Virus record (IMG/VR): IMGVR_UViG_3300021961_008712
Span: 1-64,000 of that record
Source: a virus
DNA: 64,000 bases
Strand: one strand, 5' to 3'
The position numbers were made by a program, and so were the translations under genes. Below, in pieces: positions 5,336 through 35,718 of this stretch. The notes below the pieces were generated by a model. It ran no database searches, was not told the DNA's origin, and saw only the letters and a program-made list of their open reading frames with translations. Within the stretch, counting starts at the first letter, position 1, and every line of letters starts with the position of its first letter.

Positions 5336-6121
5336 ATGATACAGTTAAGAGAAATAGTTGGACTACCATCACTACAGTACCATTTAGACAATGGTCTCAC
5401 CTTATCTGAGAATGTCTACCGTTATAGCTCTGATGCCTTTATACAGTTATTCGCTGAGGCAAGACAAGCGTGGAGAGACGGTTATATCACACTTAATGAG
5501 CAAGATGAAGACCTTTTAGAAACCACTGACATCGGAGAGTACGGAGATTACAACGGTATGAAAGTTCCTTTAGATCTTCCAATGGTCTCTACAAAATATA
5601 ATCCACTATTCGAAATTGGCGCTCTAATTGATGAAATGATTGAGAACGAGGATACAATTGACGAAGCAGCCTCTATTGAGGAAATGATCGATTATGATCT
5701 AGTAAAAGAGTTAGTCGAATCAATTGGTGGCCAAATCGATATGGACAGATTCAGAAAAGCAGTTAAAGTGAATAACGAATCTTTTGATTATTCTGGATTT
5801 GACTTATTAAAAGCCTCAGTAGGGTATATGAACGAATCTGAATACCAAGGTAAAAAGGTTCAGTTAAATAAACCTAAAAGAGGAGGCTCTAAAAAATTCT
5901 ACGTTTACGTAAAGAATAAAAAAGGAAATGTACAGAAAGTATCATTTGGTGATACTGGTCTTTCAGTTAAATTTAAACAAAAAGGAGCAAGAGCTTCATT
6001 TGCTGCAAGACATAAATGTGATACTAAGAAAGATAAAACAAAAGCTGGCTACTGGTCTTGTAACATCGGACGTTACTGGAAATCATTAGGCGGTAGTTCT
6101 AACTTCTCAGGATACTGGTAA
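5336..6121 (+). CDS. Hypothetical protein: acidic N-terminal region plus basic C-terminal module
   Basis: After ...YMNE|SEYQGKKV comes a basic KKFYVYV...VSFG...SFAARHKC...AGYWSC module. Confidence 0.6.
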   Translation: MIQLREIVGLPSLQYHLDNGLTLSENVYRYSSDAFIQLFAEARQAWRDGYITLNEQDEDLLETTDIGEYGDYNGMKVPLDLPMVSTKYNPLFEIGALIDEMIENEDTIDEAASIEEMIDYDLVKELVESIGGQIDMDRFRKAVKVNNESFDYSGFDLLKASVGYMNESEYQGKKVQLNKPKRGGSKKFYVYVKNKKGNVQKVSFGDTGLSVKFKQKGARASFAARHKCDTKKDKTKAGYWSCNIGRYWKSLGGSSNFSGYW

Positions 6122-6249
6122 TGGCAAGAGGTCAACACTCATCCCCGCAGAGAACTAAGTACGGTAAACGTAAAAAGTCTCAAAATAAATTATTAAAGCT
6201 TTTAAAGCATAATAACTCGGTTTTAATTAAATTAAATGCGACCTTATAA
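6121..6249 (+). CDS. Small basic protein (42 aa, absent from the ORF track)
   Basis: TAATG coupling to the upstream stop; MARGQHSSPQRTKYGKRKKSQNKLLKLLKHNNSVLIKLNATL*. Confidence 0.55.
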   Translation: MARGQHSSPQRTKYGKRKKSQNKLLKLLKHNNSVLIKLNATL

Positions 6250-6490
6250 AGAAGAAGAGCAAGACGGTTTTGTTATCAGAGAATTCTCTCAAGATATTTC
6301 CCCTATAGAATTAGTATGGCATAGAGACAGGGAAGACAGAATAGTCGAAGCCCTGCATGAGACTGATTGGAAGTTTCAATTGGATAACGAATTCCCGGTC
6401 TTTATTGATAAGCTATTTATTCCTAAAGAGACGTATCACCGTCTTATAAAAGGAACAGGTAATTTAAAAGTTAAAATCACAAAGTTGTAA
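6236..6490 (+). CDS. Small cupin-like protein
   Basis: LVWHRD..D and FIPKETYHRLIKGTGNLKVKI match cupin His motifs. Confidence 0.55.
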   Translation: MRPYKEEEQDGFVIREFSQDISPIELVWHRDREDRIVEALHETDWKFQLDNEFPVFIDKLFIPKETYHRLIKGTGNLKVKITKL

Positions 6491-6640
6491 ATGGCAGCAA
6501 AATCAACAAAAGGTATTCAATTCAATACCTACAGAGTAAAATCTAAAGTATCAAGACCAGGCGTACATGCTAAAACAAAACAATCTAGCAACAAAGGGTC
6601 TAAAAATTACGTTAAGCCGTATAGAGGACAAGGAAAATAA
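6491..6640 (+). CDS. Small basic protein ending YRGQGK (49 aa, absent from the ORF track)
   Basis: MAAKSTKGIQFNTYRVKSKVSRPGVHAKTKQSSNKGSKNYVKPYRGQGK* fills the gap exactly. Confidence 0.75.
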   Translation: MAAKSTKGIQFNTYRVKSKVSRPGVHAKTKQSSNKGSKNYVKPYRGQGK

Positions 6641-6642
6641 AA

Positions 6643-7533
6643 ATGAAACCGAGCGTACATGAATTTGGCGCCCAAGGTATATACGTTATAAGTGATCCTA
6701 AAAATTTAGAGAGAAGAAAACGTTTCGTAGATAGCTGGGGCATATTTGATGACTTTAGCTACAAGTTTGTTGATGCTATTATGGGTGATGATATCGATGT
6801 AGATGCATTAATAAAAGAAGAACGTTTAAAAGAGTTTTGGTGCGGTGAAGGAGCAATATCGAAAAATATATTAGGTTGCTTCTTATCTCATAGATCTGTA
6901 TGGGAGCATATTTTAAAAACTCAAGAAAGAATTACCGAAACTAGCTACTTCCTAATTATGGAAGATGACGCTATTCCAACTGAACATTTTACTAAAGAAG
7001 CTTTTACTAACGGAGAGTTTAGAAAGGTATTAAAGTTTATTGAAAGAAACTCAGTAGACTGTTTTTGGTGGGGTAGAGCTTCTGAAAAAGTATCAGGTAA
7101 CTACTATAATAAACATATTAAGATACCTGACCCATGGCAAGGGTTTGGTGCACATGCCTATATGGTTAATCATAGTATGCTTTTAGAGCTTTTAAAATGC
7201 TCTTATCAAATCACTCACCCTGCAGACGTTTTTATAGACATAGTATGCTATAACGATAAAAGATATTTTAGTCCAAATTGGTCATATATCAGACAACACT
7301 CTCATATACTTCATACAAGATTTATGCCATTTAATCATCCTAATAGAATCTGGGGCAGTACAACTCAACCTGATTGGGAAGATTATGATACAAGGCACTA
7401 TGATGGGTTATACGAAAATGTAGCACCTGGTTTTAAAGAGTACATATCATCAGCTGAGAAGAAAAGTTTAGAAAATGGACCTACAGGTATATCGTTCAAA
7501 TTTAATCAAGTCAGTGAGAATAGTCTTTTATAA
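6643..7533 (+). CDS. Glycosyltransferase family 25-like
   Basis: IYVIS...ERR...FVDAIMG...GCFLSHRSVW...LIMEDDA...GAHAY...PAD motifs. Confidence 0.8.
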   Translation: MKPSVHEFGAQGIYVISDPKNLERRKRFVDSWGIFDDFSYKFVDAIMGDDIDVDALIKEERLKEFWCGEGAISKNILGCFLSHRSVWEHILKTQERITETSYFLIMEDDAIPTEHFTKEAFTNGEFRKVLKFIERNSVDCFWWGRASEKVSGNYYNKHIKIPDPWQGFGAHAYMVNHSMLLELLKCSYQITHPADVFIDIVCYNDKRYFSPNWSYIRQHSHILHTRFMPFNHPNRIWGSTTQPDWEDYDTRHYDGLYENVAPGFKEYISSAEKKSLENGPTGISFKFNQVSENSLL

Positions 7534-7568
7534 ACTATTTATTAATGGATAACATAACCTGATTTATA

Positions 7569-7928
7569 ATGAAGCTTTCAGATATTATTCTTAACGAAGA
7601 ACCAGGACCTAGACAAGCTACAGTGAAGCTAAGCGAGCTAACTATGGATGTACTAGCTTCTACACTTGGTAAACCCCCGTATAATCTTCCTAACACGGAT
7701 GATTCTTCTTCATCAATTTATACCGAAACTCAATTAGGGTATTGGAAATCACTTATGGAGAAAAGATATGGAGATTTTAATTTGAGAATAGATGCTGAAG
7801 CAGGGTACTGGGAGAAAGTTAAAATACTTGACGATAGGTTTATATCAGATAAGAATAGATACACAGCTGGTAAAGCAGCTTGGTTAGATAAAGAAAGACA
7901 AGCCGGAAGAACTTCTGGTTTAGATTAA
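7569..7928 (+). CDS. Hypothetical protein with MKLSDIILNE leader
   Basis: ORF track; TATTTATT upstream at 7536. Confidence 0.6.
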   Translation: MKLSDIILNEEPGPRQATVKLSELTMDVLASTLGKPPYNLPNTDDSSSSIYTETQLGYWKSLMEKRYGDFNLRIDAEAGYWEKVKILDDRFISDKNRYTAGKAAWLDKERQAGRTSGLD

Positions 7929-7933: not shown

Positions 7934-8362
7934 ATGAGACTATCACACGTCATATTAGGAGAAATACTTTACTACAATCCTGAGTTTGAAAAAGAAATTG
8001 ACAAAATAAAGGATCAAGGCGGTAAGTACCTAGGTTCAGGTGATTACGGATCAGCTTATTTACTTAACGGACGTGTCTATAAAGTAACCACAGACGAAAT
8101 AGAATTAGAACACGCCCACATCCTTAAGGGTAAAAAAACAAACAACTTTGCTTACATCTACGATGCTGAAACGTTAGGTCCTAAGTTAGGTATTATTCAA
8201 CTTGAAGTCTTAGGAGATTTCAAAGGAGAGATACCAGAAGAGTGGATCGATGCTACAGAAGCAGAAGCAGAAAGACTAGGATTAGATCCTGAAGAATTAG
8301 ATATAAGACCCTCTAATGTAATGATTAATCAAAAAAATCATTTAAAATTAGTTGATATTTAG
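7934..8362 (+). CDS. Minimal protein-kinase-like protein
   Basis: Gly loop LGSGDYGSAY, VYKVT Lys, helix-C Glu, catalytic DIRPSNVM, terminal KLVDI. Confidence 0.7.
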   Translation: MRLSHVILGEILYYNPEFEKEIDKIKDQGGKYLGSGDYGSAYLLNGRVYKVTTDEIELEHAHILKGKKTNNFAYIYDAETLGPKLGIIQLEVLGDFKGEIPEEWIDATEAEAERLGLDPEELDIRPSNVMINQKNHLKLVDI

Positions 8363-8405: not shown

Positions 8406-9329
8406 ATGGATTATACTTTTCTATTAAGCTCTATCGAGAGAGTTCTTGGTAAGAGTCATAAGAGAGCAAGGGACAATTATGCTTTTCACTGTCCTTTTTG
8501 CAATCATAGAAAGCCAAAGCTTGAAATAAACTTGGCTACTAACGAACAAGGACATAATCCTTGGGAGTGTTGGGTATGCCAAACTCGTGGACGTACTATA
8601 CGCTCTCTTCTCAAGCAACTTAAAACTCCTAGAGATATTGCTCAAGATATACTTAAATACCTTCCGAAAGGTTCTGAAGTTGAGTATCAACAGCTATCTA
8701 TAGTAGAACTACCTAAGGAGTATCAACCATTATATAACGCTTCACATACATCGGTAGTAGCTAATATTGTAAGAAAGTATTTAAATGACAGAGGACTTAC
8801 CGAGATCGATTATCTTAAATATAGCATTGGATACTGTACAACTGGAGAATATGGAGGACGAATTATTATCCCAAGTTTTTCTGAATCCGGACAACTCAAT
8901 TTCTTTGTTGCGAGATCTTATGATGGCAATTACTTTAAGTATAAGAACCCAGAAGCTTCCAAAGACATAATCTTTTTTGAAAATTTAATAAACTGGAATG
9001 CACCTATAATTTTATGTGAGGGTGTATTTGATGCTATTGCTATTAGACGTAACGCTGTACCTCTACTAGGTAAAAGCGTGTCTAATGAACTCTATAAGAA
9101 AATATTAACAAGTGGTGTACAAGAAATTTACATTGCGTTAGATATAGATGCTCAAGATAGAGCACAGGAAATCGCAGAAAAGTTCTTAAATCAAGGTAAG
9201 AGAGTTTTCTTAGTAGAACTTCCTGATAAGGATCCTTCTGAGATGGGATTTAGAGCATTTACTAGCCATATTCAATCAGCCGAGGAATTTAATTTAAACT
9301 CCCTCCTCCGGCATAAACTACAATTATGA
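8406..9329 (+). CDS. DNA primase (Zn finger + TOPRIM)
   Basis: CPFC..H..WECWVC zinc finger; GRIIIP; KYKNP; LCEGVFDA; ALDID TOPRIM; KDPSE. Confidence 0.9.
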   Translation: MDYTFLLSSIERVLGKSHKRARDNYAFHCPFCNHRKPKLEINLATNEQGHNPWECWVCQTRGRTIRSLLKQLKTPRDIAQDILKYLPKGSEVEYQQLSIVELPKEYQPLYNASHTSVVANIVRKYLNDRGLTEIDYLKYSIGYCTTGEYGGRIIIPSFSESGQLNFFVARSYDGNYFKYKNPEASKDIIFFENLINWNAPIILCEGVFDAIAIRRNAVPLLGKSVSNELYKKILTSGVQEIYIALDIDAQDRAQEIAEKFLNQGKRVFLVELPDKDPSEMGFRAFTSHIQSAEEFNLNSLLRHKLQL

Positions 9330-10108: not shown

Positions 10109-10719
10109 AAAATATAATTAAAAGTTTTTTCTTTGCATTAATTTTCTTATCTTTAGGTGGTTGTGGTACATATCTAATCAATACCCAACCTAGAGTAAGA
10201 GTAGAAAAATTGCTTGCTATTAACTCTGCTGGTGATACCGTACAAGTTTCTATTGATAGAGTTCTTAGAGAGTACAGTTATGGCAGCTATCAGAACTGGA
10301 GCTTTAATTGGAATAACCAGTGGTACCCTTATCAAGCTTTTCCTTACTACTTTTACTCTAACCCCTATAGATGGTATGGAAGCACTATTTATAACAGACC
10401 ATATATTGGACCCAGTGTAACAGTGCCTCTGAACAGACCTAGAACTATAATTCGAGGAAGAAGAGGAAGTAATAACTTAGAAAGAAATGATCAATTTAAC
10501 AGACCTAATTTTAGAAGCGAAAGGCCGGCCGAAGGTAATAGTAATGGCAGGAGGAGCAGCAGCAGGGAAGTCATCTCTCCTAGACAAACTCAACCTAGGA
10601 TCACTCCCAATAGTCAACCCCGACAAATACGTAGAGGATCCCAACCACCAAGCGTACAACAACCTATCAAGAGCAGCAGCCCTAGCAGACAAGGAGGCAG
10701 AAGACCTCTCGACAACTAA
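10105..10719 (+). CDS. Putative lipoprotein with aromatic-rich core and R/S/Q-rich disordered tail
   Basis: Signal peptide with lipobox LSLGG-C; 3' end overlaps the next gene by 233 nt. Confidence 0.6.
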   Translation: MKNIIKSFFFALIFLSLGGCGTYLINTQPRVRVEKLLAINSAGDTVQVSIDRVLREYSYGSYQNWSFNWNNQWYPYQAFPYYFYSNPYRWYGSTIYNRPYIGPSVTVPLNRPRTIIRGRRGSNNLERNDQFNRPNFRSERPAEGNSNGRRSSSREVISPRQTQPRITPNSQPRQIRRGSQPPSVQQPIKSSSPSRQGGRRPLDN

Positions 10720-11422
10720 ACAGTCATTTGTTTGGGATACTACAGCTTCTAACCCTACTAAAGTTAAAGAACTTATAACTAAAGGCTATGATGTCTATAT
10801 GGTTATGGTCTATACTCACCCTATGAATGCTTTCGTAGGAAACTTTAAGAGAGAGAGAAGAGTACCAGAAGCAGCTGTATTCTCAACCTGGAGAAATGTC
10901 TATCAGTTAATTAAAGACTACAATAAAATGACTGGTGGTCAATTCTCTTTATACATTAATGACAGAAAAGGTAAGTATGCTGCAGAGGTAGAGGCATTTG
11001 ATACTGCAGCTAAAAACGGTGCTAAAGGAATATCAGACTTTTTAAAAAGATGGGTTACCTCTAAAAACCCTGACGATGACGGTTCTACTTTTAGAAAGCC
11101 ATTAGAAATGTCTCAAGAAGAAGAAAACGAATTCTTCAAAGCCACTCAAGGTATTGATTGGGATAAAGGAAACTATAGTGAAGATAGAGCCATCAAGAAA
11201 GCGTTCTTAGATGCTTTCCAAAAGAATGGTGTAGGGCCTGGTGCAGATAAACTAAAAGATGCAGTAAAGAAATACAGAGACCTTAAAGCTAAAAATGATC
11301 AAAAACAAGAAGAAGTATTAGAGAATATTGCTGAAATGTTATTTAGTCCAGAGTTTCAAGAACAATTAAAGCATTCATCTGCACAAGAAATAGATAAAGC
11401 ATTACAGGACTTTTTAGCATGA
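10487..11422 (+). CDS. Zeta-toxin-like / AAA_33 P-loop kinase
   Basis: MAGGAAAGKS Walker A, VNPD, FVWDTT, RERRVPE. Confidence 0.75.
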   Translation: MINLTDLILEAKGRPKVIVMAGGAAAGKSSLLDKLNLGSLPIVNPDKYVEDPNHQAYNNLSRAAALADKEAEDLSTTKQSFVWDTTASNPTKVKELITKGYDVYMVMVYTHPMNAFVGNFKRERRVPEAAVFSTWRNVYQLIKDYNKMTGGQFSLYINDRKGKYAAEVEAFDTAAKNGAKGISDFLKRWVTSKNPDDDGSTFRKPLEMSQEEENEFFKATQGIDWDKGNYSEDRAIKKAFLDAFQKNGVGPGADKLKDAVKKYRDLKAKNDQKQEEVLENIAEMLFSPEFQEQLKHSSAQEIDKALQDFLA

Positions 11423-13125
11423 TAGCATTATACCCAGGAGCATTTAAACCACCTCATAGAGGACATTTTAACGTAGTAAAATCTTTACTCGACGGCTCCT
11501 ATAATGGTACAATCTATTCTAAAGACGATTATAAAGAAAAAGGCGCAAGCTTATTTTTAAAAGAAGCAGGAGATAAACCTAATATTGATAAGGTTGTAGT
11601 TTTTGTAGGTGCTGGAGAAAGAAACGGTATAGACAAACAAGAAGCTTTAACTATTTGGAACATATATGCCAAGCATTTAGGAAATGTAGAAATATTAGAC
11701 GGTGGACAGAATCCAATGTTTGGTGCTAAAAATTATGCAAAAGATAATCCAAACGAAGAATTTGTAGCTGTAACTGGAATTAGAGGTGAAAAAGACTTTG
11801 TAGACTTAAGAAGAGTTACTACATTTGCCAATACACCTAACGTACAAGGTTTAGCATTAGCAGCAGCACCAGGTTCTGGAGTTAGAGCAACAGATTTTAG
11901 AGCAAGTATACTAGCAGGCAATTTAGATAAAATTGTAGACTTTTTTCCTAAAGAGTTGGAAAGAGGAGAGATACTACGTATATTAGTTGATTTGAAAGAT
12001 AAGATCGTAGCAGAAATTATTGGATCAAATATTGACGGCTACATAACAGAGTATTTTGCACAGCCAGAAATTCAAGAAGAAAAAGAAGAAGTTCCTGAGT
12101 ATACTAAATATATTGCTTCTATATTAGAGTATATGATTGATCAGAAGATGAAAGTACTTCCTCTACCAGAAGTCAAGACAGTTAGAGATGAAGCAAATGC
12201 TGCAGACTTTTTTGGTAAAACAGCTCATTATGATCCAAATAAACAAGAAGTTGTTCTTTACGTTGAAGGAAGACACCCTAAAGATATCGTAAGATCATTT
12301 GTACATGAAATGATTCACCATATGCAGAACTTAGAAGGCAGGTTAGGTAATATTGGTACAAGTAATACAAACGAAGACGATGATTTACTAGAGATAGAAA
12401 AAGAAGCTTACTTAAAAGGAAATATAACTTTTCGCAATTGGGAAGATTCTATTAAAAATAAACCAAAACAAGAAGTTGTGGCAGAAGGCAAGTACGGCAA
12501 GATATCTAATGTACTTTCTAGATATGCTTTTGATGTTTTAAAAAAAGCACATGAAGAAGGTAGAAAAAATGTAAACACTACCATTAGAGTAGGCAACCCA
12601 GAACATGATGACGTTGATATAGAGTCTACTCAATTTGAAGTAGATTTTAATGTATACGCCGAATTTAAAGATGATATCTATTCTGTTGACGGTGGAGCTA
12701 ATGCTGGATTTGATGACGAGGGAGATGAAATTTATCCTTTAATTAACGTAGTATTCAATATACCTCTAGACCCAGATTGGCAAGAAATCTCTATGGATCT
12801 AAAAGATGTCGTTAGACATGAATTAGAACACCTTACTCAAGACGGTGAAAATGTTAGACAGGGTAAATACATACCAGATGACAAGGATTTAAGAGACTTG
12901 ATTGATCAGGGTATACTAGATAAAGAAAACTATTACTACCTACCTAAGGAAGTAGATGCTATGATACAAGGCTTATATTTTAAAGCCAAAAAGTCTAAAA
13001 AGCCATTCTCAGATGTAGTAGATGACTACCTGAAAAAAACAGGAGAATCGTTGGAAGTCCGCGAAAAAATTCGTATATTATGGAATAAAAGACTACCTTC
13101 ATTAGGTATAAATCAAAGGTTATGA
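11419..13125 (+). CDS. HxGH (cytidylyltransferase-like) nucleotidyltransferase fused to two HExxH zincin-like domains
   Basis: YPGAFKPPHRGH and RATDFR; FVHEMIHHMQ...EKEAY; VRHELEHLTQ...EVDA. Confidence 0.75.
   Translation: MIALYPGAFKPPHRGHFNVVKSLLDGSYNGTIYSKDDYKEKGASLFLKEAGDKPNIDKVVVFVGAGERNGIDKQEALTIWNIYAKHLGNVEILDGGQNPMFGAKNYAKDNPNEEFVAVTGIRGEKDFVDLRRVTTFANTPNVQGLALAAAPGSGVRATDFRASILAGNLDKIVDFFPKELERGEILRILVDLKDKIVAEIIGSNIDGYITEYFAQPEIQEEKEEVPEYTKYIASILEYMIDQKMKVLPLPEVKTVRDEANAADFFGKTAHYDPNKQEVVLYVEGRHPKDIVRSFVHEMIHHMQNLEGRLGNIGTSNTNEDDDLLEIEKEAYLKGNITFRNWEDSIKNKPKQEVVAEGKYGKISNVLSRYAFDVLKKAHEEGRKNVNTTIRVGNPEHDDVDIESTQFEVDFNVYAEFKDDIYSVDGGANAGFDDEGDEIYPLINVVFNIPLDPDWQEISMDLKDVVRHELEHLTQDGENVRQGKYIPDDKDLRDLIDQGILDKENYYYLPKEVDAMIQGLYFKAKKSKKPFSDVVDDYLKKTGESLEVREKIRILWNKRLPSLGINQRL
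13051..13080 (+). promoter_or_regulatory. TTG-N20-TATATTA promoter upstream of the HAD phosphatase
   Basis: ttggaagtccgcgaaaaaattcgtatatta. Confidence 0.55.
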
Positions 13126-13667
13126 AAAAAAAGTTAGTAGACTTATTAGAAGCTTATCCTCTTCCCGAACAAAAAGAACTTCCAAAGTATAAAATATACT
13201 GCGATATGGATGGAGTGTTAACAGACTTTGAAGCAAGGTTTGACCACTTCACTGGAATGAATCCTCAAGAGTACGAAAGTCAATACGGTACTGAACAGTT
13301 TTGGAATTTAATAGATGTTAAAGTAGGAGTTAAATTCTGGGTAGGAATGGATTGGATGCCTCAAGGTAGACAACTTTGGAATTTTATAAAACCATATAAA
13401 CCGGATCTTTTAACTTCCCCTTCTAGAAATAATGAATCTAGATTAGGAAAAAACTTATGGGTTAGAAATAATCTAAACCCTAAACCAAAAGTAAACTTTG
13501 CATATTCAGCTGATAAGCAACAGTACGCACAGCCTGATGCTATTCTTATTGATGATAAAAAATCAAACATTAATGAATGGGCATCCAAAGGCGGGATAGC
13601 TATCAGATGTAAAAATGGAGACGTAAATCATGTAATTGAAGAATTAAAAAAACTAGGATATGAGTAG
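13122..13667 (+). CDS. HAD-family 5'(3')-nucleotidase-like phosphatase
   Basis: YCDMDGVLTDF, LLTSP, conserved Lys, LIDDKKSN. Confidence 0.85.
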   Translation: MKKKLVDLLEAYPLPEQKELPKYKIYCDMDGVLTDFEARFDHFTGMNPQEYESQYGTEQFWNLIDVKVGVKFWVGMDWMPQGRQLWNFIKPYKPDLLTSPSRNNESRLGKNLWVRNNLNPKPKVNFAYSADKQQYAQPDAILIDDKKSNINEWASKGGIAIRCKNGDVNHVIEELKKLGYE

Positions 13668-14583: not shown

Positions 14584-14943
14584 ATGACACAGAAAGAAGT
14601 ACTTGATGCTGTATTAGCGGAAATAAGACACATTAAAACGCATATGCCTAACGGTGAGTTAAAGGCTATGCAAAAAGATATGGAAAACCTTAAGGATGAT
14701 ATGTCAGATCTCAAATACACATTACTCAATCCCGACAATGGAGTTATTGTAAATACCAACAAAAACACAGAATTTAGACAATCTCTTCAGTCTAATCAAA
14801 AAGAATTCGATACTCAGATGGCTAAAATTTCTGAAATCGAAACTTGGAAGAATGGAGTTACTAAGGCCCTTTGGGTTATTTTTGGTATTTTAGCATCTAT
14901 CATCATCAGAATGCTAATGATGCATTCAGACAAACTTCAGTAA
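14584..14943 (+). CDS. Coiled-coil protein with C-terminal transmembrane helix
   Basis: Heptad-rich region followed by ALWVIFGILASIII. Confidence 0.6.
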   Translation: MTQKEVLDAVLAEIRHIKTHMPNGELKAMQKDMENLKDDMSDLKYTLLNPDNGVIVNTNKNTEFRQSLQSNQKEFDTQMAKISEIETWKNGVTKALWVIFGILASIIIRMLMMHSDKLQ

Positions 14944-14944: not shown

Positions 14945-15856
14945 ATGAAAAACCTAAAACAAGCACTTAAAGAGCTACAAGAAGAAAAACCAGGACTTTG
15001 GGCTAACATTAGAGCTAAAAGAGAAAAAGGAGAAAAACCTTCTCACGGTAATTCTAATGCACATAAAGATGCAGTAGCAGCTGGTAAGAAGATTAATAAA
15101 ATGTCTGAAGAACAAGGTAAATTCTACGTAGGGTATAATCTAGGTAGAGGACAAGGCAAAGGTATATTTAAAACTCCATACGACTCTTACGCAGAAGCGA
15201 AAAAAGAAGTTGAAAAATCTTATCAATTAGATAAAGGCAGTAGAAATATGACTGCTTATTATGTAGCAGATGAGAACGGTAACCTTCATAAAGAAGTAGT
15301 AGACGAGATACTTAAAATATTTAACACCCAGCGGGTAAAAGAAGCCACTAAAGTATCTGAAGCAAACGTTAACCCTGAAGCAGAAAAATTAGTTGGTGAC
15401 TTTATTATGAAGTTAGCTAAGCGATACGGTTACGGAGCTAAAGATGCAATCTACTTAGTTCAATCTGTAATTAGTAATATAGAAGCTTCTGGTAAACTAA
15501 ATGAAGGAGAAGAATGGCCAGAAGAAGTTCCATCAAGACACGGAGATATTATCTTTAAATTAATTAAGGTAATGCCTGATAGAGCTAAATATGCTCTAAT
15601 AGATGCTAAGACAGGAAAAGAATGGGAAGCAGGAGGAAGAGTATTTGGCTCTATTAAATCTCTAATGGCTTCAGCAGAAGATACTATTATGCCTCAAGGC
15701 GGTAGACAATCTACAAATCTTGGAGAAGATAAATCAGATGCTGTTAGATGGTTTGGCAACGTAAAGTACTATTATACTAAGGCATTTGTAGAACTGAAAG
15801 GTGAAGATAAACAACTCTACATACAAATGCTAAAAGATTACTTTTCTAAATTGTAA
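14945..15856 (+). CDS. Modular hypothetical protein (putative head-packaged polyprotein)
   Basis: Short modules separated by LQE/MSE/VSE/LNE/LGE. Confidence 0.55.
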   Translation: MKNLKQALKELQEEKPGLWANIRAKREKGEKPSHGNSNAHKDAVAAGKKINKMSEEQGKFYVGYNLGRGQGKGIFKTPYDSYAEAKKEVEKSYQLDKGSRNMTAYYVADENGNLHKEVVDEILKIFNTQRVKEATKVSEANVNPEAEKLVGDFIMKLAKRYGYGAKDAIYLVQSVISNIEASGKLNEGEEWPEEVPSRHGDIIFKLIKVMPDRAKYALIDAKTGKEWEAGGRVFGSIKSLMASAEDTIMPQGGRQSTNLGEDKSDAVRWFGNVKYYYTKAFVELKGEDKQLYIQMLKDYFSKL

Positions 15857-15857: not shown

Positions 15858-16541
15858 ATGAAATTAACACGCCTTGTAAACGAGATACTTTTTGAGGCCT
15901 TCAAAAAAGGTAAGGTTATCGTATACCATAATTTTCAAGGTGTAGATACAGATGAAAATATTGCCGGTACTAATAAAGTTTTAAATGTAGCTGATTGTAT
16001 AGGTAACGAACCAGGAAAAGATTATAACTACTTTACAACTGAAAAAAAGCAGTATGTAGAGGACATGATAAAAGATGCTTCTGGAGATGGCTGGAAAAAA
16101 TTTCCACCCATAGTAGCTATACCCCACCCAATCATTAACGGTAAATACGCAGTCATAGACGGTAACCATAGATTAGGTGCTTTTACTATTGGTAAACTAC
16201 CACAGATTAATGCAAGAATCTTATCAGACGACAAAATATTATTAGCTGATCAAGGTGTAGAGTGGGATGAAAATAAACTTCCTAAGACTATGCCTTTAGC
16301 AGATGCTAAAAAACAAGGAGTGAATTTAAAAGAATATTTTGCTACACAGCCTTTAAAAGTTCCTTCTAACGAAAACTACGCCGACGGTAAAGTAAAAGGA
16401 AAATCTAGACCCGGTAGAGTTAAAAAATCAGGAGCCTCATGTAAAGGTTCAGTAACCGACTTACGAGCTAAAGCTAAAAAGTACGGAGGAGAAAAAGGTA
16501 AAATGTATCACTGGTGTGCAAACATGAAAGGTGGTAAGTAG
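15858..16541 (+). CDS. ParB/Srx-like domain protein with basic C-terminal module
   Basis: FPPIVA...YAVIDGNHRLGA; after SNE|NYADGK a basic Cys/His module. Confidence 0.7.
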   Translation: MKLTRLVNEILFEAFKKGKVIVYHNFQGVDTDENIAGTNKVLNVADCIGNEPGKDYNYFTTEKKQYVEDMIKDASGDGWKKFPPIVAIPHPIINGKYAVIDGNHRLGAFTIGKLPQINARILSDDKILLADQGVEWDENKLPKTMPLADAKKQGVNLKEYFATQPLKVPSNENYADGKVKGKSRPGRVKKSGASCKGSVTDLRAKAKKYGGEKGKMYHWCANMKGGK

Positions 16542-22053: not shown

Positions 22054-23222
22054 TGAACCTTATTGATAAAGCTATACTTGAATGGTCATTTAGAACCAAA
22101 AAAGGATACCCTGATCTGAACAATGAAACAGATTTAAGGGTATTTGAGTCTATATTTGGCTTTACTCTTAGTGAGGGACTCAAAGAAAAAAATGCAATCA
22201 AAAAAATTATTGATGCTAACCCAGGTAAGTTTGACACAATGTCAAATGATTTTAGGATAGCTAATACTGCCAAAGTATCTTCAGATGAATTTGTCGATGC
22301 TATAAAATCTACCTATGGGGCTGAAGTTGAAGTAGAAGTAACACCTCCAAAATCCGGTTCTAATAAGAGCAGTAAATTTAACATGTATACTTTCGACGAT
22401 GACGGTAATAATGTTAGTATTTATTTAGCTGGAGGAGCATCTGCTAATCAAGGTGTAAACTACGAATTACAAATTGCACAAGATTTACAAAACTACAATC
22501 AAGGTAGTGATGAATACGTACATAAAGAAGTAGTAGAAGAGATAATTAAAACATTCAACCTAAAACCAGGTAAGTTCGAAATTATAGAAGAAGGATCTAA
22601 AAACCAGAAAAGACCTTTAGAGTTTACAGAGAACGGACCTATAATTGCTCACTCTGGAGAAAGTGTTGCAGCTACACTAACTGATCTTACAATTAAAACA
22701 GAAGGTAAGACATACTTTCTCTCTCTTAAGTACGGCAGTACATTAACATTCTTTAACGCTGGAGTAGCAGTAAGTACCTTTCCAGCAAAAGAAATTGAAC
22801 AAGGTAGAGTAACAAATCCTGCTGGTGTTTCTTTATTAGAAATGCTTGGAATAGATAACGAAATATTCTGTAGAGTATTTAACGAATATGGACAGACAGA
22901 TTTTAAACAATACCACACCTCCTCAGATAACTTTGATAGGGAAAAGCTATTCAACTTAGTTCATTCTGGAATTGGTAGTGGATATTGGATGTTAAAAGGT
23001 TCTGGTAAAGGCTCTACTTTTTATGAAATTACTGAAGAGTATGCTAGAAAAGCAGCGACTCCTATCGGAGGTATTAATATTCAATATGGCGGCGCAGACG
23101 GCAAAGGAAAAAGAGTAGATATTCATTTTGAATCTTCAGAATATAGTTTTAAAATGAACATAAGAAATAAGCAAGGTGGCTTATATCCTTCGCACATAAT
23201 GTGTGATTATAAAAGAAAATAA
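22053..23222 (+). CDS. PD-(D/E)xK restriction-endonuclease-like protein
   Basis: GVNYE...TLTDLTI...YFLSLK catalytic pattern. Confidence 0.55.
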   Translation: MNLIDKAILEWSFRTKKGYPDLNNETDLRVFESIFGFTLSEGLKEKNAIKKIIDANPGKFDTMSNDFRIANTAKVSSDEFVDAIKSTYGAEVEVEVTPPKSGSNKSSKFNMYTFDDDGNNVSIYLAGGASANQGVNYELQIAQDLQNYNQGSDEYVHKEVVEEIIKTFNLKPGKFEIIEEGSKNQKRPLEFTENGPIIAHSGESVAATLTDLTIKTEGKTYFLSLKYGSTLTFFNAGVAVSTFPAKEIEQGRVTNPAGVSLLEMLGIDNEIFCRVFNEYGQTDFKQYHTSSDNFDREKLFNLVHSGIGSGYWMLKGSGKGSTFYEITEEYARKAATPIGGINIQYGGADGKGKRVDIHFESSEYSFKMNIRNKQGGLYPSHIMCDYKRK

Positions 23223-26752: not shown

Positions 26753-27607
26753 ATGAAAATAAAACATTCAAAGTATAGAAATACTGGACTAATATTTGAA
26801 TTATTAGTCAAGCAGATTGCTGCCGATACTTTAAACGGTAGTGATTCTGCCGCAATTTCTATAATCAAAGAATTTTATAGCACTAAGAATGCTTTATCTA
26901 AGGAGTATAAATTATACAACCTTATATTAAAAGCTGAAGGTGTTAATCAAACAAAAGCAGAAGCAATTCTTTCTACTATTACTGAGATATCTAGAAAGCT
27001 AGATCAAGATGTATTAAAGAATCAAAAATATAAACTAATATCTAGAATTAAAGAGAGTTATAATCTTGATGAATTTTTTAGTATTCAAGTTAAAAGTTAT
27101 AAACCTTTAGCTGCTCTTTACTGTTTATTAGAAGCACAAAATAATACTGAATTAGTAGATCCTCAATACTTAATTGAAAATAAAGTAACTATTTTAGAAT
27201 ACTTAACATCTAAGTCTCAAAACCAAGAAGATGTAAAAGATACTTTAATAGAAGAATATTCTAAGTACGATAAAGATTTAAAACTACTAACGTTTAGAAT
27301 ACTACTTGAAAAATTCAATAACAAGTATAAAGACCTACTCCCAGAGCAAAAGAATATATTAAAGGAGTTTATTACCTCTGTCAACTCCAGGACACGTTTA
27401 CGCAATGTAATCAACGAAGAACTTTCTAAGATTGCAAATGAGGTGCAAAAGTTATCGTCAAAGGTCAAAGACCAAGTTGTAAAGATTAAGTTAGATGAAG
27501 TAGCTAAAGCGATAGTACCTTTGAAGAAAACGGAAACTATCACTGATATACATCTGATTAATTTAATGCAGTATTACGACTTAGTGAACGAGTTAAAGAC
27601 TCTGTAA
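26753..27607 (+). CDS. Helical head-module protein (possible prohead core component)
   Basis: Lies between portal and protease; starts KHSKYRNTGLIFELL. Confidence 0.55.
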   Translation: MKIKHSKYRNTGLIFELLVKQIAADTLNGSDSAAISIIKEFYSTKNALSKEYKLYNLILKAEGVNQTKAEAILSTITEISRKLDQDVLKNQKYKLISRIKESYNLDEFFSIQVKSYKPLAALYCLLEAQNNTELVDPQYLIENKVTILEYLTSKSQNQEDVKDTLIEEYSKYDKDLKLLTFRILLEKFNNKYKDLLPEQKNILKEFITSVNSRTRLRNVINEELSKIANEVQKLSSKVKDQVVKIKLDEVAKAIVPLKKTETITDIHLINLMQYYDLVNELKTL

Positions 27608-27783
27608 TGAAAAGATCAGAGATTATTTCGTTAATAAGAGAAGTAATGCGAGAATTAGAAGAAGCTAATACTTCTGGAGGCGTAGGTGCATACCTTACGC
27701 CAAATGCATTTAGTAAAAGACCTTCTAAAAGAGCTACTAAAGTACTGACTAAACAAGGATACAAAAAGACAAAAGATATTTAG
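27607..27783 (+). CDS. Small protein (58 aa, absent from the ORF track)
   Basis: TAATG coupling; MKRSEIISLIREVMRELEE|ANTSGGVGAYLTPNAFSK... Confidence 0.7.
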   Translation: MKRSEIISLIREVMRELEEANTSGGVGAYLTPNAFSKRPSKRATKVLTKQGYKKTKDI

Positions 27784-29535: not shown

Positions 29536-30114
29536 ATGGCACAATTATTAGTAGACGTTACGCCATTTAGACCTACCATTAAAGAGTCCAAAAGTAAACC
29601 TGGAGTCTTTGAAGTTGAGGGTGTTATGCAGAGAGCATCAGCACAAAACCAAAACGGTAGAGTTTATAAAAAAGAGATTCTAGAAAGAGAATGTAGTAAG
29701 TACATTAAAGAGTTCGTAAAAAATGGTAATGCATTCGGAGAACTTGACCACCCTGAGTCTCCTGTTGTCTCTCTTAAGAACGCCTCTCACATAGTAAAAG
29801 AGTTATGGTGGAAGGGAGACGACCTTATGGGACGTGTAGAACTACTAAATACCCCTGCAGGTAATATCGTAAAAGAGATTATTAGAGCAGGCCATACAAT
29901 CGGTATTTCATCTAGAGGTACCGGATCAGTTCAACAAACCAATGAGGGAACTTTAGAAGTACAACCAGACTTTGAATTAGTATGCTGGGATTTCGTTTCT
30001 AATCCATCAACTCATGGTGCGTTTATGAACCCAGTATCGTTAAATGAAGGCAAAACTAAAGTATCAAAATACGCAAGTTTAGATTTTATTATCAACGATA
30101 TTCTCAGAGCATGA
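29536..30114 (+). CDS. Prohead core protease (T4 gp21-like)
   Basis: NQNGRVY, GELDHP, ASH, LNTPAG, GISSRGTGS, DFVSNPS. Confidence 0.95.
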   Translation: MAQLLVDVTPFRPTIKESKSKPGVFEVEGVMQRASAQNQNGRVYKKEILERECSKYIKEFVKNGNAFGELDHPESPVVSLKNASHIVKELWWKGDDLMGRVELLNTPAGNIVKEIIRAGHTIGISSRGTGSVQQTNEGTLEVQPDFELVCWDFVSNPSTHGAFMNPVSLNEGKTKVSKYASLDFIINDILRA

Positions 30115-30650
30115 TTAAGCTAGCAAACATTATATTAGAACAAGAAGAAAATTTAGATTTTCCGGAAATGGATAATTTCGGTGCTCAAATGGCTAAAGCT
30201 GTAGAGGCTGAGTTAGAGAAAGAAAAAGAAAATATCGATGAAGCAGCAGGTGTTGTTGGTGTCATAGGTTTGATTCTTCTTTCTAATACAGTTGCTAATA
30301 TGATTGCTAAAATGGCTAAGTTTTTAGCTAAAAAAATAGGTTCCCAAAAAATGCAAAAATCAGCTGAGTGGTGGGAACATTTTACTCATGATAATGAAGT
30401 AGCGTTTATGTCTCCTATCAACCGCGTAATTAGTTTATTTATTAAAGATCCGAAAAAGAAAGAAGGTATTACTAAAATACTTTACGCAATAGTAATATTT
30501 GCTATGGCAGGATCAGCTGGTGGAGAAGCTCTTGCCTTACTCAAAAAGACTAGATGGGCTCAAGCAGCAATGTATACCGCAAAAGCTTTAATTAAAGGTA
30601 TAGAAGTTAATAACTTAATTACCCACGCAGTAACTGACCTAACTAGTTAA
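30111..30650 (+). CDS. Hypothetical protein with MIKLANIILE leader and hydrophobic helices
   Basis: After NIDE| come AAGVVGVIGLILL and ILYAIVIFAMAG segments. Confidence 0.6.
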   Translation: MIKLANIILEQEENLDFPEMDNFGAQMAKAVEAELEKEKENIDEAAGVVGVIGLILLSNTVANMIAKMAKFLAKKIGSQKMQKSAEWWEHFTHDNEVAFMSPINRVISLFIKDPKKKEGITKILYAIVIFAMAGSAGGEALALLKKTRWAQAAMYTAKALIKGIEVNNLITHAVTDLTS

Positions 30651-30778: not shown

Positions 30779-31837
30779 ATGGCAAACAAAGATTTATTCA
30801 AGCAAGCTATTGCTGAAGCTAAGTCTGTAAGAGAAGCCGCTATTGCTAACGCTAAGGAAGCTTTGGAAGAGTCTTTAACTCCTCATCTAAGAGATATGTT
30901 AGCTGCTAAACTTCAAGAGATGGAAGATTCTCAAAACGAAGAAGCAGTAAACGAAATGGATGATGAAGAAGTAGAAGAATCTGCTAAAAACGACAAAGAA
31001 GAAACAGTAGAGGAAGATCTTTCAGCATTTCAAGAAGTAGCTGAAGAAGACGAAGAAGCTCCTGTAGAGGATGACTCAGAAGAAGCTGAGGACGAAGCTG
31101 GAGAAGAATTAGAATCTGAAGATGAGCCTGCTGAAGACGAAGAGTTAGGTAACTTAACAGTAGCAGATTTCAAAGACATGATCAGAGACCTTATCGCTCA
31201 AGAAATGGGTGGTGGTGCTGAAGACATGGGAGCTGAAATGGGCGCTGAAGTACCTGCTGACGATATGGACGCTGGCGCTGACTTAGAAGTACCGGGTGAA
31301 GGTGATCCTTTAGCTGGTGGAGAAGACGAAGAAGAAATCGACCTTGATGAATTGATTAGAGAACTTGAAGGTACAAAAGAAGAAGAAGACACTATGGAAG
31401 AAGTAACAGAAGGACCTGGTGCTAACGAAGTAGCTTCTACTCCTGAAACCAAAGAGAAGAACATCAATAGAGTAGTTAAGGAAGACTTAAACGAAGCTCT
31501 TGAAACTATTAAGACATTAAGAAAAGAACTTAGCGAAGTAAATCTTCTAAATTCTAAGTTGCTCTACGTCAACAAAATTTTCAAAGCTAACAATTTAAGC
31601 GAGTCACAAAAAGTTAACATCATCGCTGCTTTTGATAAAGCCGAGACTGTTAAAGAAGTTAAACTTGTTTTTGAAACTGTTAGCGATAACGTAGTTGCCA
31701 AAAAAGAAACTACAATTAAAGAGAACAAAGGAATGGCTTCTAAAGCAACTGGTACTACTGCAAGTAAACCAGGAGTAATTACTGAAGCTAACGCTGCTGT
31801 TCTTAGAATGCAAAAATTAGCTGGAATTATAAAATAA
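30779..31837 (+). CDS. Prohead scaffolding protein (gp22-like)
   Basis: Very acidic coiled coil immediately before the capsid gene; ends RMQKLAGI. Confidence 0.8.
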   Translation: MANKDLFKQAIAEAKSVREAAIANAKEALEESLTPHLRDMLAAKLQEMEDSQNEEAVNEMDDEEVEESAKNDKEETVEEDLSAFQEVAEEDEEAPVEDDSEEAEDEAGEELESEDEPAEDEELGNLTVADFKDMIRDLIAQEMGGGAEDMGAEMGAEVPADDMDAGADLEVPGEGDPLAGGEDEEEIDLDELIRELEGTKEEEDTMEEVTEGPGANEVASTPETKEKNINRVVKEDLNEALETIKTLRKELSEVNLLNSKLLYVNKIFKANNLSESQKVNIIAAFDKAETVKEVKLVFETVSDNVVAKKETTIKENKGMASKATGTTASKPGVITEANAAVLRMQKLAGIIK

Positions 31838-31860: not shown

Positions 31861-33456
31861 ATGGAAATTAACCAACTTTTAGAAAGCTCAAATACTTACA
31901 AAAGTATGCAAGCTGACGCTGCTAGATTAGCAGATAAGTGGTCTCAATCTGGTTTGTTAGAAGGCATCTCTGATGAGAAAGCTAAAACTAACATGGCTAT
32001 GGTACTAGAAAACCAAGCTAAACAAATCGTAGCTGAGGCTAACAACACAAACGTAGGTGGTGCCTCTTTCGCAGCTGGTCAAGGTGAGCAGTGGGCAGGA
32101 GTAGCTTTACCACTTGTAAGAAAAGTCTTCGCTCAAATCGTAGCTCAAGACTTCGTATCTGTACAACCAATGAACTTGCCTTCAGGGCTAGTATTCTACT
32201 TAGACTTTAAGTACGGTACTGCTACTAACGGTAGAAGTGACGGAGAAAACATGTACGGTAACGTAACTGCAGGTTCTAGCAAGATGGCCGCTGACTTAGA
32301 TGTCGCTGGTGGTCTTTACGGAGCTGGACAGTTTGGATATTCAATCAACCAAGCAACAGGTACTGAAGTAGCTGCAACTGTAGGAGCTGCTGCTCTTAAA
32401 GATGTTGGATACGATGCTGGTCTTACTTTAGGAAACTATGAGATCGTATCTATTCCTTTATCTTCTATCTCTAACTACGACGTAGAAGGATGTAGAGCAT
32501 TCGTAGTATTAGATTCTGGTTCTGCTGCTGGTGTAACTCTTCACAAAGAATTTACTAAAATTTCTGGATCTAACTTGGTATTAGTACAGTCTGCTGCAGG
32601 CGGTATCAATAACGGTGACAACGTAAAAGTTGTTTACCACAAACAACCAGTTGATAACGACAGAGGTGACTTCGAAGCTGATTCAAATGCTGCTGTAGAT
32701 ACTTCTATCTCTATCCCAGAGATCGACGTTAAATTACAAAGTGAGGCTATCGTTGCTAAGACTAGAAAGTTAAAAGCACAATGGACTCCTGAATTTGCAC
32801 AAGATCTTAACGCATATCACTCAATCGATGCTGAGGCTGAACTTACTTCTTTATTAAGCGAGTACATCTCTATGGAAATCGATCTTGAGATCTTAGATAT
32901 GTTGATCAACGGTGCAAGAACAACTGAGAAATGGTCTGCAGAAAACAACAAAGTATGGAACGGATCTGCATGGTCTACTTCTACTTCTGATTTCTACAAC
33001 ACTCAAGGTCAGTGGTTCCAAACTTTAGGTACTAAAGTACAAAAAGTATCTAACAAGATTCACCAAAAAACTCTTAGAGGTGGAGCTAATTTCTTAGTAT
33101 GTTCTCCAACAGTTGCTACTATCCTTGAATCAATTCCTGGATATGCTGCTCAAACTGACGGTAACCAAGAGAAATTTGCAATGGGCGTACAGAAAATCGG
33201 TAGCTTAGCTAACAGATTCCAAGTATACAAAAACCCTTACATGACTGAAAACGTTATCCTATTAGGATTTAGAGGTTCTCAGTTCTTGGAAGCAGGTGCT
33301 GTATATGCTCCATATGTACCATTATTAATGACTCCTCTTGTATACGATCCAGAAACCTTCACTCCAAGAAAAGGTTTAATGACTCGTTACGCTAAGAAGA
33401 TGATCAGACCTGAATTCTACGGTAAAATCTTCGTTTCTGACTTAGCTCAGATCTAA
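31861..33456 (+). CDS. Major capsid protein (T4 gp23-like)
   Basis: VQPMNLPSGLVF, AKTRKLKAQWTPEFAQDLNAYH, YAPYVPL, FTPRKGLMTRYA. Confidence 0.97.
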   Translation: MEINQLLESSNTYKSMQADAARLADKWSQSGLLEGISDEKAKTNMAMVLENQAKQIVAEANNTNVGGASFAAGQGEQWAGVALPLVRKVFAQIVAQDFVSVQPMNLPSGLVFYLDFKYGTATNGRSDGENMYGNVTAGSSKMAADLDVAGGLYGAGQFGYSINQATGTEVAATVGAAALKDVGYDAGLTLGNYEIVSIPLSSISNYDVEGCRAFVVLDSGSAAGVTLHKEFTKISGSNLVLVQSAAGGINNGDNVKVVYHKQPVDNDRGDFEADSNAAVDTSISIPEIDVKLQSEAIVAKTRKLKAQWTPEFAQDLNAYHSIDAEAELTSLLSEYISMEIDLEILDMLINGARTTEKWSAENNKVWNGSAWSTSTSDFYNTQGQWFQTLGTKVQKVSNKIHQKTLRGGANFLVCSPTVATILESIPGYAAQTDGNQEKFAMGVQKIGSLANRFQVYKNPYMTENVILLGFRGSQFLEAGAVYAPYVPLLMTPLVYDPETFTPRKGLMTRYAKKMIRPEFYGKIFVSDLAQI

Positions 33457-33525: not shown

Positions 33526-33562
33526 AGAAGACAAATAATTGTTCTACATAATACATAACTAT

Positions 33563-34249: not shown

Positions 34250-34253
34250 TAGC

Positions 34254-34261
34254 TATTTATA
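34254..34261 (+). promoter_or_regulatory. TATTTATA putative late promoter (neck genes)
   Basis: Recurrent intergenic octamer. Confidence 0.65.
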
Positions 34262-34276
34262 AGAAAACTATATAAA

Positions 34277-35419
34277 ATGGCCAACGTAAGCATATGGAAC
34301 GGTACTGCTACCTTTAATGTAGGCGATACTCCTTTCGGATTCTACGATTCTGATACTACTTTTCAAGCAGATGCAGTTAAAGTAGCTAGATTTGTAGGAA
34401 CTAGACTTGGTTATCCGCTTATGGATGTAGAGCTTCAACAAGAGCAGATGTATGCTTGTTTTGAAGAAGCTATCACTACATATGGTAACGAAGTATTTCA
34501 ATATAAAATTAGAGAAAATTACTTAAATTTAGAAGGATCGAGAACTGGAAGTTCAATGAATAACCAACTTACCGACCCTACCTTAAATCGTATCATTCAG
34601 ATATCTAAACATTACGGGACCGAAGCAGGAGTAGGTGGAAATGTAACTAGACATACCGGTTCAATAGCTATAAACAGTAATCAGCAGAACTATAATTTAG
34701 ATACTTGGGCATCAGAACAAGGAATAACTGGTGGAATAGAAGTAAGAAAAGTATTTTACGAAGCACCACCAGCTATATTACGCTATTTTGATCCTTATGC
34801 AGGTACTGGTACCGGCGTACAATCGTTAATGACAGCTTTTGATTTCGGAGCTTATTCTCCTGGAGTCAATTTCATGTTAATGCCTACTTCGTACGATATT
34901 TTAAAGACTCAAGCCATAGAATTTAACGATCAAATTCGTAAATCAACTTATTCTTTTGAGATAGTAAACAACGAACTACGATTATTCCCTATACCTAGTG
35001 CTACAGGCAGTTTATTCTTTGAGTATTATAAAGAATCTGATAAAGGACAGATAAATTATGATAATAATCCTGGATATATTACTAACGTAGGTGAAGTTCC
35101 GTACTCTAATCCTAGATATAGCCATATTAATAGCGTTGGACGTCAATGGATATTTAATTATACCTTAGCTTTAGCAAAAGAAGTACTAGGATACATAAGA
35201 GGTAAGTATCAGGTTGTTCCTGTACCCGGTTCTGAAGCTACCCTAAACCAGGAAGCCTTATTAACCGATTCTAGAGCTGAAAAAACAGCACTTTTAACTG
35301 CACTTAGAGAGATGTTAGATCAAACATCACGTGGAAAACAGCTAGAAGCACAAGCAAAAGAAGCAGAAGATGTACAAAATACACTTAAATCAATACCAAT
35401 GACGATTTATATAGGGTAA
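34277..35419 (+). CDS. Neck / head-tail adaptor (T4 gp13-like)
   Basis: RLGYPLMDVEL and WIFNYTLALAKEVLGYIRGKY..VP.P...LN. Confidence 0.8.
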   Translation: MANVSIWNGTATFNVGDTPFGFYDSDTTFQADAVKVARFVGTRLGYPLMDVELQQEQMYACFEEAITTYGNEVFQYKIRENYLNLEGSRTGSSMNNQLTDPTLNRIIQISKHYGTEAGVGGNVTRHTGSIAINSNQQNYNLDTWASEQGITGGIEVRKVFYEAPPAILRYFDPYAGTGTGVQSLMTAFDFGAYSPGVNFMLMPTSYDILKTQAIEFNDQIRKSTYSFEIVNNELRLFPIPSATGSLFFEYYKESDKGQINYDNNPGYITNVGEVPYSNPRYSHINSVGRQWIFNYTLALAKEVLGYIRGKYQVVPVPGSEATLNQEALLTDSRAEKTALLTALREMLDQTSRGKQLEAQAKEAEDVQNTLKSIPMTIYIG

Positions 35420-35718
35420 TGAAGCTAACAGACATCATATTAGAAATAGAATACAAGTCTTACGAGGCCATGGTACAGGTTACCTATGGAGAAGAGGGTG
35501 CTGAAGGATATGATGATGCTTTACGTGCATTACCCGGTATAACAACTGTAACTAAAGCTAATTCTGATGCAGAAGCTGGTAAAACAACCTATAAGGTTAA
35601 ACTAATAACACAGAAAACCCCAGAAGAGGCGTTTACAGCCTTTAAAACTAATGCTGAAACCAAGTATACTAACGTTATAGCAGTAGAAGTAGGGGCTAAC
35701 ACCATAGAAGAAAAATAA
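35419..35718 (+). CDS. Small ferredoxin-like-fold protein with MKLTDIILE leader
   Basis: DALRALPGITTV pattern. Confidence 0.55.
   Translation: MKLTDIILEIEYKSYEAMVQVTYGEEGAEGYDDALRALPGITTVTKANSDAEAGKTTYKVKLITQKTPEEAFTAFKTNAETKYTNVIAVEVGANTIEEK

Follow-up and report, generated by a model that had tools for sequence, protein, structure and literature searches.

A shared N-terminal leader resembling the T4 capsid-targeting sequence on unrelated proteins of an uncultured marine T4-like phage

The window analysed here is the first 64 kilobases (kb) of a single contig of 169,750 bp from an uncultured marine T4-like phage (IMG/VR record IMGVR_UViG_3300021961_008712, positions 1 to 64,000). The element under study is a leader, i.e., an amphipathic N-terminal peptide of 9-13 residues with the consensus M-K-L-S-D-I-I-L-E, which terminates in the L/I-x-E motif of the T4 prohead protease gp21 and heads a set of otherwise unrelated proteins. 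The genes of the phage lie nearly all on the + strand and Shine-Dalgarno sequences are absent. Among named phages the closest are the 160-kb vB_FspM_immuto phages of Flavobacterium (hereafter immuto), with about 75% nucleotide identity across the head genes and a major capsid protein (MCP) 67% identical; with T4-like cyanophages and enterobacterial relatives the MCP shares 26% identity. The clade of this phage is abundant in marine metagenomes.

The window contains a T4-like head module, with the terminase at 23226, the gp20 portal at 24829 (PF07230), the gp21-family protease at 29536 and the gp23 capsid protein at 31861 (PF07068). The protease and the proteins carrying a leader are listed below and are named hereafter by their first coordinate; a slash within or after a sequence marks the predicted cleavage point.

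7569..7928, + strand: 119-amino-acid protein; leader MKLSDIILNE (7569-7598).
7934..8362, + strand: 142-amino-acid protein; leader MRLSHVILGE (7934-7963).
10487..11422, + strand: P-loop kinase of the zeta-toxin/polynucleotide-kinase class (PF06414, E=1.4e-10); leader MINLTDLILE (10487-10516).
13122..13667, + strand: HAD 5'(3')-deoxyribonucleotidase-like enzyme (phrog_2643, E=1.6e-23); leader MKKKLVDLLE (13122-13151), then the linker AYPLPEQKELPKY.
14584..14943, + strand: 119-amino-acid protein; leader MTQKEVLDAVLAE (14584-14622).
14945..15856, + strand: 303-amino-acid basic protein; leader MKNLKQALKE (14945-14974).
15858..16541, + strand: 227-amino-acid basic protein; leader MKLTRLVNE/ILFE/ (15858-15896).
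20500..22053, + strand: 517-amino-acid acidic protein; leader MHKLEKIILE (20500-20529).
27607..27783, + strand: 58-amino-acid basic protein, isoelectric point (pI) 10.2; leader of type B, MKRSEIISLIRE (27607-27642); in the position of T4 gp67/gp68.
29536..30114, + strand: prohead protease, T4 gp21 family (Peptidase S77; PF03420, E=1.6e-36).
30111..30650, + strand: 179-amino-acid protein with two hydrophobic segments; leader MIKLANIILE (30111-30140).
30779..31837, + strand: scaffold (gp22-like) candidate, encoded between the protease and the MCP; N-terminal MANKDLFKQAIAE (30779-30817).
31861..33456, + strand: MCP, gp23 family (PF07068, E=8.7e-82); N-terminal MEINQLLE (31861-31884).
35419..35718, + strand: 99-amino-acid protein; leader MKLTDIILE (35419-35445); adjoins the head-tail adaptor gene 34277.

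The N-termini quoted in an earlier note on this DNA were all found at the positions given there, and its observation that about a dozen unrelated proteins share a leader was borne out by the following statistics. A strict form of the motif, L..[LIVMAK][LIVMA][LIVM].?E within the first 14 residues, occurred in 7 of 220 open reading frames (ORFs), where internal windows predict 0.36. In an unbiased comparison of every N-terminus with every other, the leader cluster emerged unaided, and 14 pairs of N-terminal 8-mers scored at least 26; two kinds of control yielded 3.3 such pairs (maximum 8). In order to avoid a post-hoc pattern, a rule taken from the T4 literature (PMC9026906) was adopted a priori. 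In the form [LI]8-x-E10 this rule selected 9 ORFs against 2.6 expected, and 5 against 0.42 when hydrophobic residues at positions 4 and 7 were added. The register-free form returned 10 matches against about 4 in this genome, a value reached by 8 of 2000 shuffles, 17 against about 4.3 in immuto (0 of 2000 shuffles) and 11 against 5.2 in T4, where the matches include IPII, IPIII and gp24. Enrichment was controlled against the remainder of this genome and the T4 non-substrate proteins; T4 N-termini outside the known substrates matched the rule at about the shuffle rate, and the matches in this genome were concentrated at 5-36 kb, with 8 of 38 ORFs against 2 of 182 elsewhere (P=1.4e-5).

The conservation of the leader was then evaluated on about 160 related metagenomic loci gathered around the protease and HAD genes, whose proteins were grouped into families by their sequence from residue 17 onwards, counting the 50 families with at least five distinct members. 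Leader frequency was bimodal, with the leader in at most 10% of members in 31 families, in at least 60% in 12 and in between in 7. The [LIVM]-x-E end was present in 92-100% of distinct orthologs in 11 families, i.e., 7569 (12/13 orthologs), 7934 (13/13), 10487 (61/63), 14584 (59/59), 14945 (9/9 of those alignable at the N-terminus), 20500, 27607 (53/53, as [LIV]xE at residue 12-13), 30111 (23/23), the scaffold, the MCP and 35419 (34/34, at residues 8-10). It was present in 0% of orthologs in 8 families, namely the primase, the NMN-adenylyltransferase-like protein, 13970, the terminase, the portal, 26753, 34277 and 35718. Primase and terminase had been named as leader-free in the earlier note. 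Leader positions -6, -3, -2, -1 and 0 are fixed and are encoded by several synonymous codons, while adjacent positions drift, indicating that the peptide is translated and selected as protein. The family-weighted profile shows L/I/F at -6 and I/L/V at -3, although both positions are part of the selection rule and the profile is therefore partly circular.

These data bear directly on the possibility that the peptides have no dedicated function and reflect chance, a compositional bias of N-termini (AT-rich, no Shine-Dalgarno) or gene starts spread by recombination. Starts with MK are indeed common, amphipathic helices are frequent, and three N-termini, those of 5336, 22053 and exonuclease 9326, look like chance or family-specific ones. 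However, the enrichment exceeds composition-keeping shuffles of the N-termini as well as internal windows, the rest of the genome holds just the two matches given above, the families split into 0% and 100%, and the leader Glu is invariant yet encoded by both GAA and GAG, with no similarity at the DNA level. Chance and composition are effectively excluded, and we consider an origin of this general kind very improbable. A DNA element at the start codons (promoter, recombination box or RNA structure) was also considered and rejected, as the upstream DNA is unrelated and the synonymous codons differ.

The leader is a portable tag, occurring on mutually unrelated proteins and separable from their fold, as had been proposed. 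BLASTP revealed no mutual similarity among the tagged proteins, and paralogy was rejected on this basis. Stand-alone homologs of the HAD enzyme occur in two forms. In the bare form (n=11) the first catalytic Asp lies at residue 8-14 and none of the 11 has a leader, whereas in the extended form (n=29) the Asp lies at 15-35 and 25 of the 29 carry a peptide of 9-13 residues ending in [LIVM]-x-E. The sequences of these peptides are diverse (MIKLKRILNE, MIRLSNLLNE, MKNFKQYITE, MGKFKEIFE), and immuto orthologs likewise retain leaders of different sequence. MIKLANIILE of 30111 corresponds to MKKSELVKLIKE in the immuto homolog, with homology of the bodies starting from residues 27 and 37, and among relatives the same 30111-family membrane-protein body bears either a type A or a type B leader. 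The earlier suggestion that the domain starts soon after the Glu in the kinase and the HAD enzyme agrees with AlphaFold2 models of both, in which the leader is a short low-confidence helix preceding the fold. In the kinase the predicted local distance difference test score is below 50 at residues 1-11 and strand beta1 spans residues 16-21; in the HAD enzyme a helix at 5-11 is followed by coil at 12-23 and beta1 at 24-28, and about 16 N-terminal residues extend beyond the phrog_2643 match.

Tags of this kind are also frequent on proteins specific to the relatives. Among accessory ORFs without counterpart in this genome, located in the head and cargo regions of the relatives, the leader was found in 102/207 and 212/488 (43-49%), including many small families starting MKLS[KDN][IV]ILE. 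A third leader type, xNFDL[RK]KF[LI][AT]E/NKLT (type C), is common in relatives and in immuto (MW353175 103806-104354, 117631-118632 and 118632-118931) and absent from this genome.

A gp21 homolog had been predicted at 29536, and the PF03420 match confirms the assignment; the protein is 37% identical to T4 gp21 over 171 residues and matches the solved T4 gp21 structure 5JBL. The catalytic His (GELDHP) and Ser (GISSRG), which are replaced by Ala in 5JBL, an inactive crystal form, are conserved, and 29536 is apparently an active gp21-type enzyme. In T4, gp21 cuts after L/I-X-E, and within the 10-residue capsid-targeting sequence (CTS) of IPIII targeting depends on residues 4 and 7 and processing on residues 8 and 10 (PMC9026906). 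The leaders of this phage end in this published cleavage motif, at about the distance from Met1 seen in the T4 CTS.

Bona fide head proteins carry the same kind of peptide. The resemblance of the MCP start MEINQLLE to the leaders, pointed out in the earlier note, is supported by the conservation of E8 in 37/37 distinct orthologs; the gp23 domain begins at residue 76, with two additional candidate sites, LLE34 and IVAE59, upstream of it. The scaffold candidate 30779, for which Pfam and PHROG searches gave no match, has a pI of 4.1 and ten [LI]xE sites, and its first 48 residues are almost invariant across 25 relatives. Proteins 27607 and the membrane-like 30111 are located in the module where T4 places gp67 and gp68. 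BLASTP detected no gp24-like vertex paralog. In T4 the gp20 portal is unprocessed, and the portal of this phage is without the leader motif. The T4 record (NC_000866) gives the following N-termini for comparison: MKTYQEFIAE/A for IPII and IPIII, MLKEQLIAE/A for gp22, MAKINELLRE/S for gp24, MNEPQLLIE/T for gp21 and MEGLIE/A for gp67. Of these, gp22 resembles the scaffold start MANKDLFKQAIAE/A and gp24 resembles the capsid start MEINQLLE/S, the cleavage being predicted in this phage.

As a separate observation, the C-terminus of the scaffold, ...RMQKLAGIIK, found in 64/64 relatives, recurs within the N-terminal leader MKKQILSEQFRRMQKLAGIITE/SQ of an unrelated 154-residue protein of immuto (MW353175 111675-112139). 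It may represent a second address label, taken from the likely shell-binding end of the scaffold.

The leader was compared with known systems. With the T4 CTS (Mullaney and Black 1996, reviewed in PMC9026906 and PMC3012670) it shares the presence of an N-terminal peptide of about 10 residues on otherwise unrelated proteins, hydrophobic residues spaced i, i+3, i+4, an L/I-x-Glu end with the Glu about as far from Met1, and a gp21-family protease inside a gp20-...-gp21-gp22-gp23 module. The common pattern is M-K-x-h-x-x-h-h-x-E, 10 residues being too short for a homology test. The consensus differs, MKTYQEFIAE in T4 against MKLSDIILE and MKKSxLxxLVRE here, while the type C leaders of the relatives end in FIAE/FLAE, like the EFIAE of the T4 CTS. 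The two systems also differ in scale, with 3 tagged proteins in T4 against about 12 here and dozens of such families across the clade, and in cargo, which on sequence evidence extends here to identifiable enzymes, the P-loop kinase and the HAD nucleotidase, and to a protein whose segments look membrane-like. In T-even phages the internal proteins, encoded at polymorphic loci, form a varied group of defense proteins in which just the CTS is conserved (PMC3012670); hypervariable accessory genes with the tag alone in common are likewise seen here, in the accessory ORFs of the relatives described above, although in a distant lineage with a Bacteroidota host and with at least three tag types, interchangeable on the same body. 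In the giant phages phiKZ, 201phi2-1 and SPN3US (PMC5694885, PMC9026906) a diverged gp21-type protease similarly cuts after Glu on many head and ejection proteins, but the propeptides are mostly longer than 100 residues and the motif is S/A-x-E instead of L/I-x-E. SPN3US gp47, an ejection-protein candidate with a transmembrane segment behind its propeptide (PMC5694885, PMC9026906), offers a precedent for 30111. A further T4 N-terminus, that of the hypothetical gp61.1 (54 residues; NC_000866 18966-19130, minus strand), whose gene adjoins the primase gene, starts MKTFKEFIKE and is a near-copy of the internal-protein CTS.

We consider it probable, though by no means certain, that the leader is a T4-type capsid-targeting propeptide. 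Following the T4 model, the amphipathic N-terminal helix of 9-13 residues would give unrelated proteins affinity for the assembling prohead core and, once the shell is assembled, the gp21-family protease 29536 would remove the leader by cleavage behind the Glu of [LI]-x-E. Thereafter the mature proteins would stay packaged alongside the DNA inside the head, from where they could pass into the host upon infection. Core binding, cleavage after the Glu, retention in the virion, ejection and a role against host defences or in takeover are all steps that we infer by analogy with T4. The last of these, already put forward in the earlier note, is speculation modelled on T4 IPI and IPIII.

The peptide might instead be no more than a pro-sequence or a processing site for the prohead protease or another protease, controlling activity or stability without any targeting, with packaging due to other parts of the proteins or not occurring. 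This is compatible with the conservation pattern, since the processing end [IL][IL]LE is best conserved and positions 2-6 drift, and with the separability of targeting and processing determinants in the T4 CTS (PMC9026906). However, conservation extends to the hydrophobic residues at -6 and -3, the counterparts of CTS residues 4 and 7, and the unrelated bodies share nothing else able to target them. Moreover, gp21-type proteases work within the assembled prohead, so that the substrate must be there beforehand. We therefore regard a purely processing role as quite unlikely.

A docking helix for a partner outside the capsid, such as the phage GroEL/GroES, a membrane site or a replication or compartment hub, or else a degradation tag, was also weighed against capsid targeting. 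At 5-23 kb, many of the tagged genes are interspersed with genes for replication and nucleotide metabolism, the phage carries genes for a GroES and a GroEL of its own (contig positions 121055-123011, beyond the window; likewise in immuto), and the tie of the tagged proteins to virions is drawn from the T4 analogy. Nevertheless, a peptide of this kind stands at the start of the capsid protein, of the scaffold and of small head-module proteins, matches the T4 head propeptides and ends exactly in the gp21 specificity motif, which makes such a partner unlikely. Judged from its sequence, the peptide also lacks the length of a Sec or lipoprotein signal and is too acidic for one.

Several observations weigh against capsid targeting. 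For both this phage and immuto, cleavage and packaging are predicted from the T4 example. Several tagged proteins look nucleotide- or NAD-related and could act in the cytoplasm, and their genes are also found among replication genes (primase, exonuclease). The Pfam and PHROG profiles of kinase 10487 extend at their N-terminal end into its leader, and the peptide could therefore belong to the normal N-terminus of that family. The register-free rule recovers just 4 of 11 known T4 substrates, which limits its sensitivity and specificity, and the head region of the more distant relative Mel-JY01 has just a few candidate leaders. On the supporting side, [LI]xE is modestly depleted in the mature bodies of tagged proteins: the median observed/expected ratio is 0.73 across the 17 families with a tag and 1.28 across the 27 without (P=0.005), and [LI]xD does not differ between the two groups. 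However, [LI]xK is also lower in tagged bodies (P=0.012), which confounds the test, and the depletion is therefore counted as suggestive only.

Pfam searches at E<=1 gave nothing meaningful for 7569, 7934, 14945, 15858, 20500, 22053, 30111 and 35419, and for 7569 the PHROG search was also without match. The label of kinase given to 7934 in the earlier note thus finds no Pfam support; the immuto ortholog of this protein begins MISIYNILKE. The zeta- or polynucleotide-kinase-like label of 10487, on the contrary, stands, as its nearest folds are the Clostridium thermocellum and T4 polynucleotide kinases and the zeta/PezT and AvrRxo1 kinases; a PADLOC search returned only a marginal P-loop match, for this same protein. 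The start of the kinase gene is overlapped by 233 nucleotides, in another frame, by a lipoprotein-like ORF (10105-10719, MKNIIKSFFFALIFLSLGGC...) with homologs in 57 related loci, and both appear to be real genes.

The HAD assignment of 13122 is likewise supported; a PDB sequence search gave no match. In this family [LIVM]-x-E is retained in 85% of distinct orthologs. Among the best 150 HAD homologs about 100 are C-terminal domains of proteins of 400-1400 residues, and the HAD gene overlaps by 4 nucleotides the end of an NMN-adenylyltransferase-like gene (11419-13125). Taken together, the two observations suggest that the two parts are fused elsewhere, whereas here they are split and tagged separately.

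Downstream, type B leaders (MKKSELINAIKE) are frequent in relatives of 14945, and 37/46 relatives of 15858 have [LIVM]xE inside the first 14 residues. For the designation of 15858 as ParB there is only a weak language-model lead to ParB_N (score 0.84). The relatives of 20500 carry the leaders MHKLEKLILE, MKRADLKKLILE and MNKLDKLILE, with a loose motif in 32/41. The idea that a single 841-residue immuto protein is split here into separately tagged 18163 and 20500 was dropped, as the orthologs of 18163 are mostly without leader (14% have it). The two hydrophobic segments of 30111 agree with the earlier description of a membrane protein.

Two further entries of the original list are weaker.

5336..6121, + strand: 261-amino-acid protein; weak N-terminal MIQLRE/.
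22053..23222, + strand: 389-amino-acid protein (phrog_8438); N-terminal MNLIDKAILE (22053-22082).

In 5336 the peptide is too short and E6 alternates with D in relatives (59%), and its N-terminus is probably not a leader. In 22053 the sequence lies inside a conserved N-terminal module of about 35 residues, [LIVM]xE occurs in just 56% of orthologs and many relatives carry LYTE; the nuclease label proposed for this protein reduces to a weak restriction-endonuclease-like language-model lead (0.89-0.90). The list had on the other hand omitted 14584, the scaffold 30779 and 155975, the latter outside the window, which likewise qualify as tagged. The exonuclease 9326-10108, considered leader-free in the earlier note, starts MIKQGMNILE (I8-L9-E10), and 87% of relatives have [IL]-x-E at residue 10-11, as does immuto (MIQKGQNVLSE); the exonuclease is without the usual hydrophobic pattern, and its tag status is ambiguous.

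The CTS and the T-even sets of internal proteins sharing only this sequence have already been published (PMC3012670, PMC9026906), and long propeptides of similar role are known in giant phages (PMC5694885). In the literature searched, no paper was found that describes sets of tags like these for T4-like phages of marine or Bacteroidota origin, and the set described here is notable for its scale and its enzyme cargo. More tentatively, the tag could be a lineage-specific, interchangeable address code defining a large, fast-turnover pan-genome of virion-delivered proteins in the clade of marine Flavobacteriia T4-like phages, a reading that we consider possible without calling it probable. Its dozens of families would include the polynucleotide-kinase/zeta-class kinase, the 5'-nucleotidase, a possible restriction-like nuclease and the membrane protein, and N-termini alone would predict the injected 'first-response' arsenal of phages that have not been cultured.

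If the tag works as in T4, the pre-made proteins delivered with the phage DNA could be read directly from the genome sequence, and the cultured relative immuto (Flavobacterium sp. LMO8) makes this prediction directly testable. A phage system for Bacteroidota would also gain in the leader a natural packaging tag that can be swapped between proteins. Two of the three T4 internal proteins are known or suspected to act against host defences, IPI against GmrSD and IPIII being required on ECOR17 (bioRxiv 10.1101/2022.04.14.488369). On the T4 model, the clade would possess dozens of virion-delivered families, enzymes included, which would constitute a concrete list of candidates, and such proteins would be best placed to disarm host defences ahead of phage gene expression.

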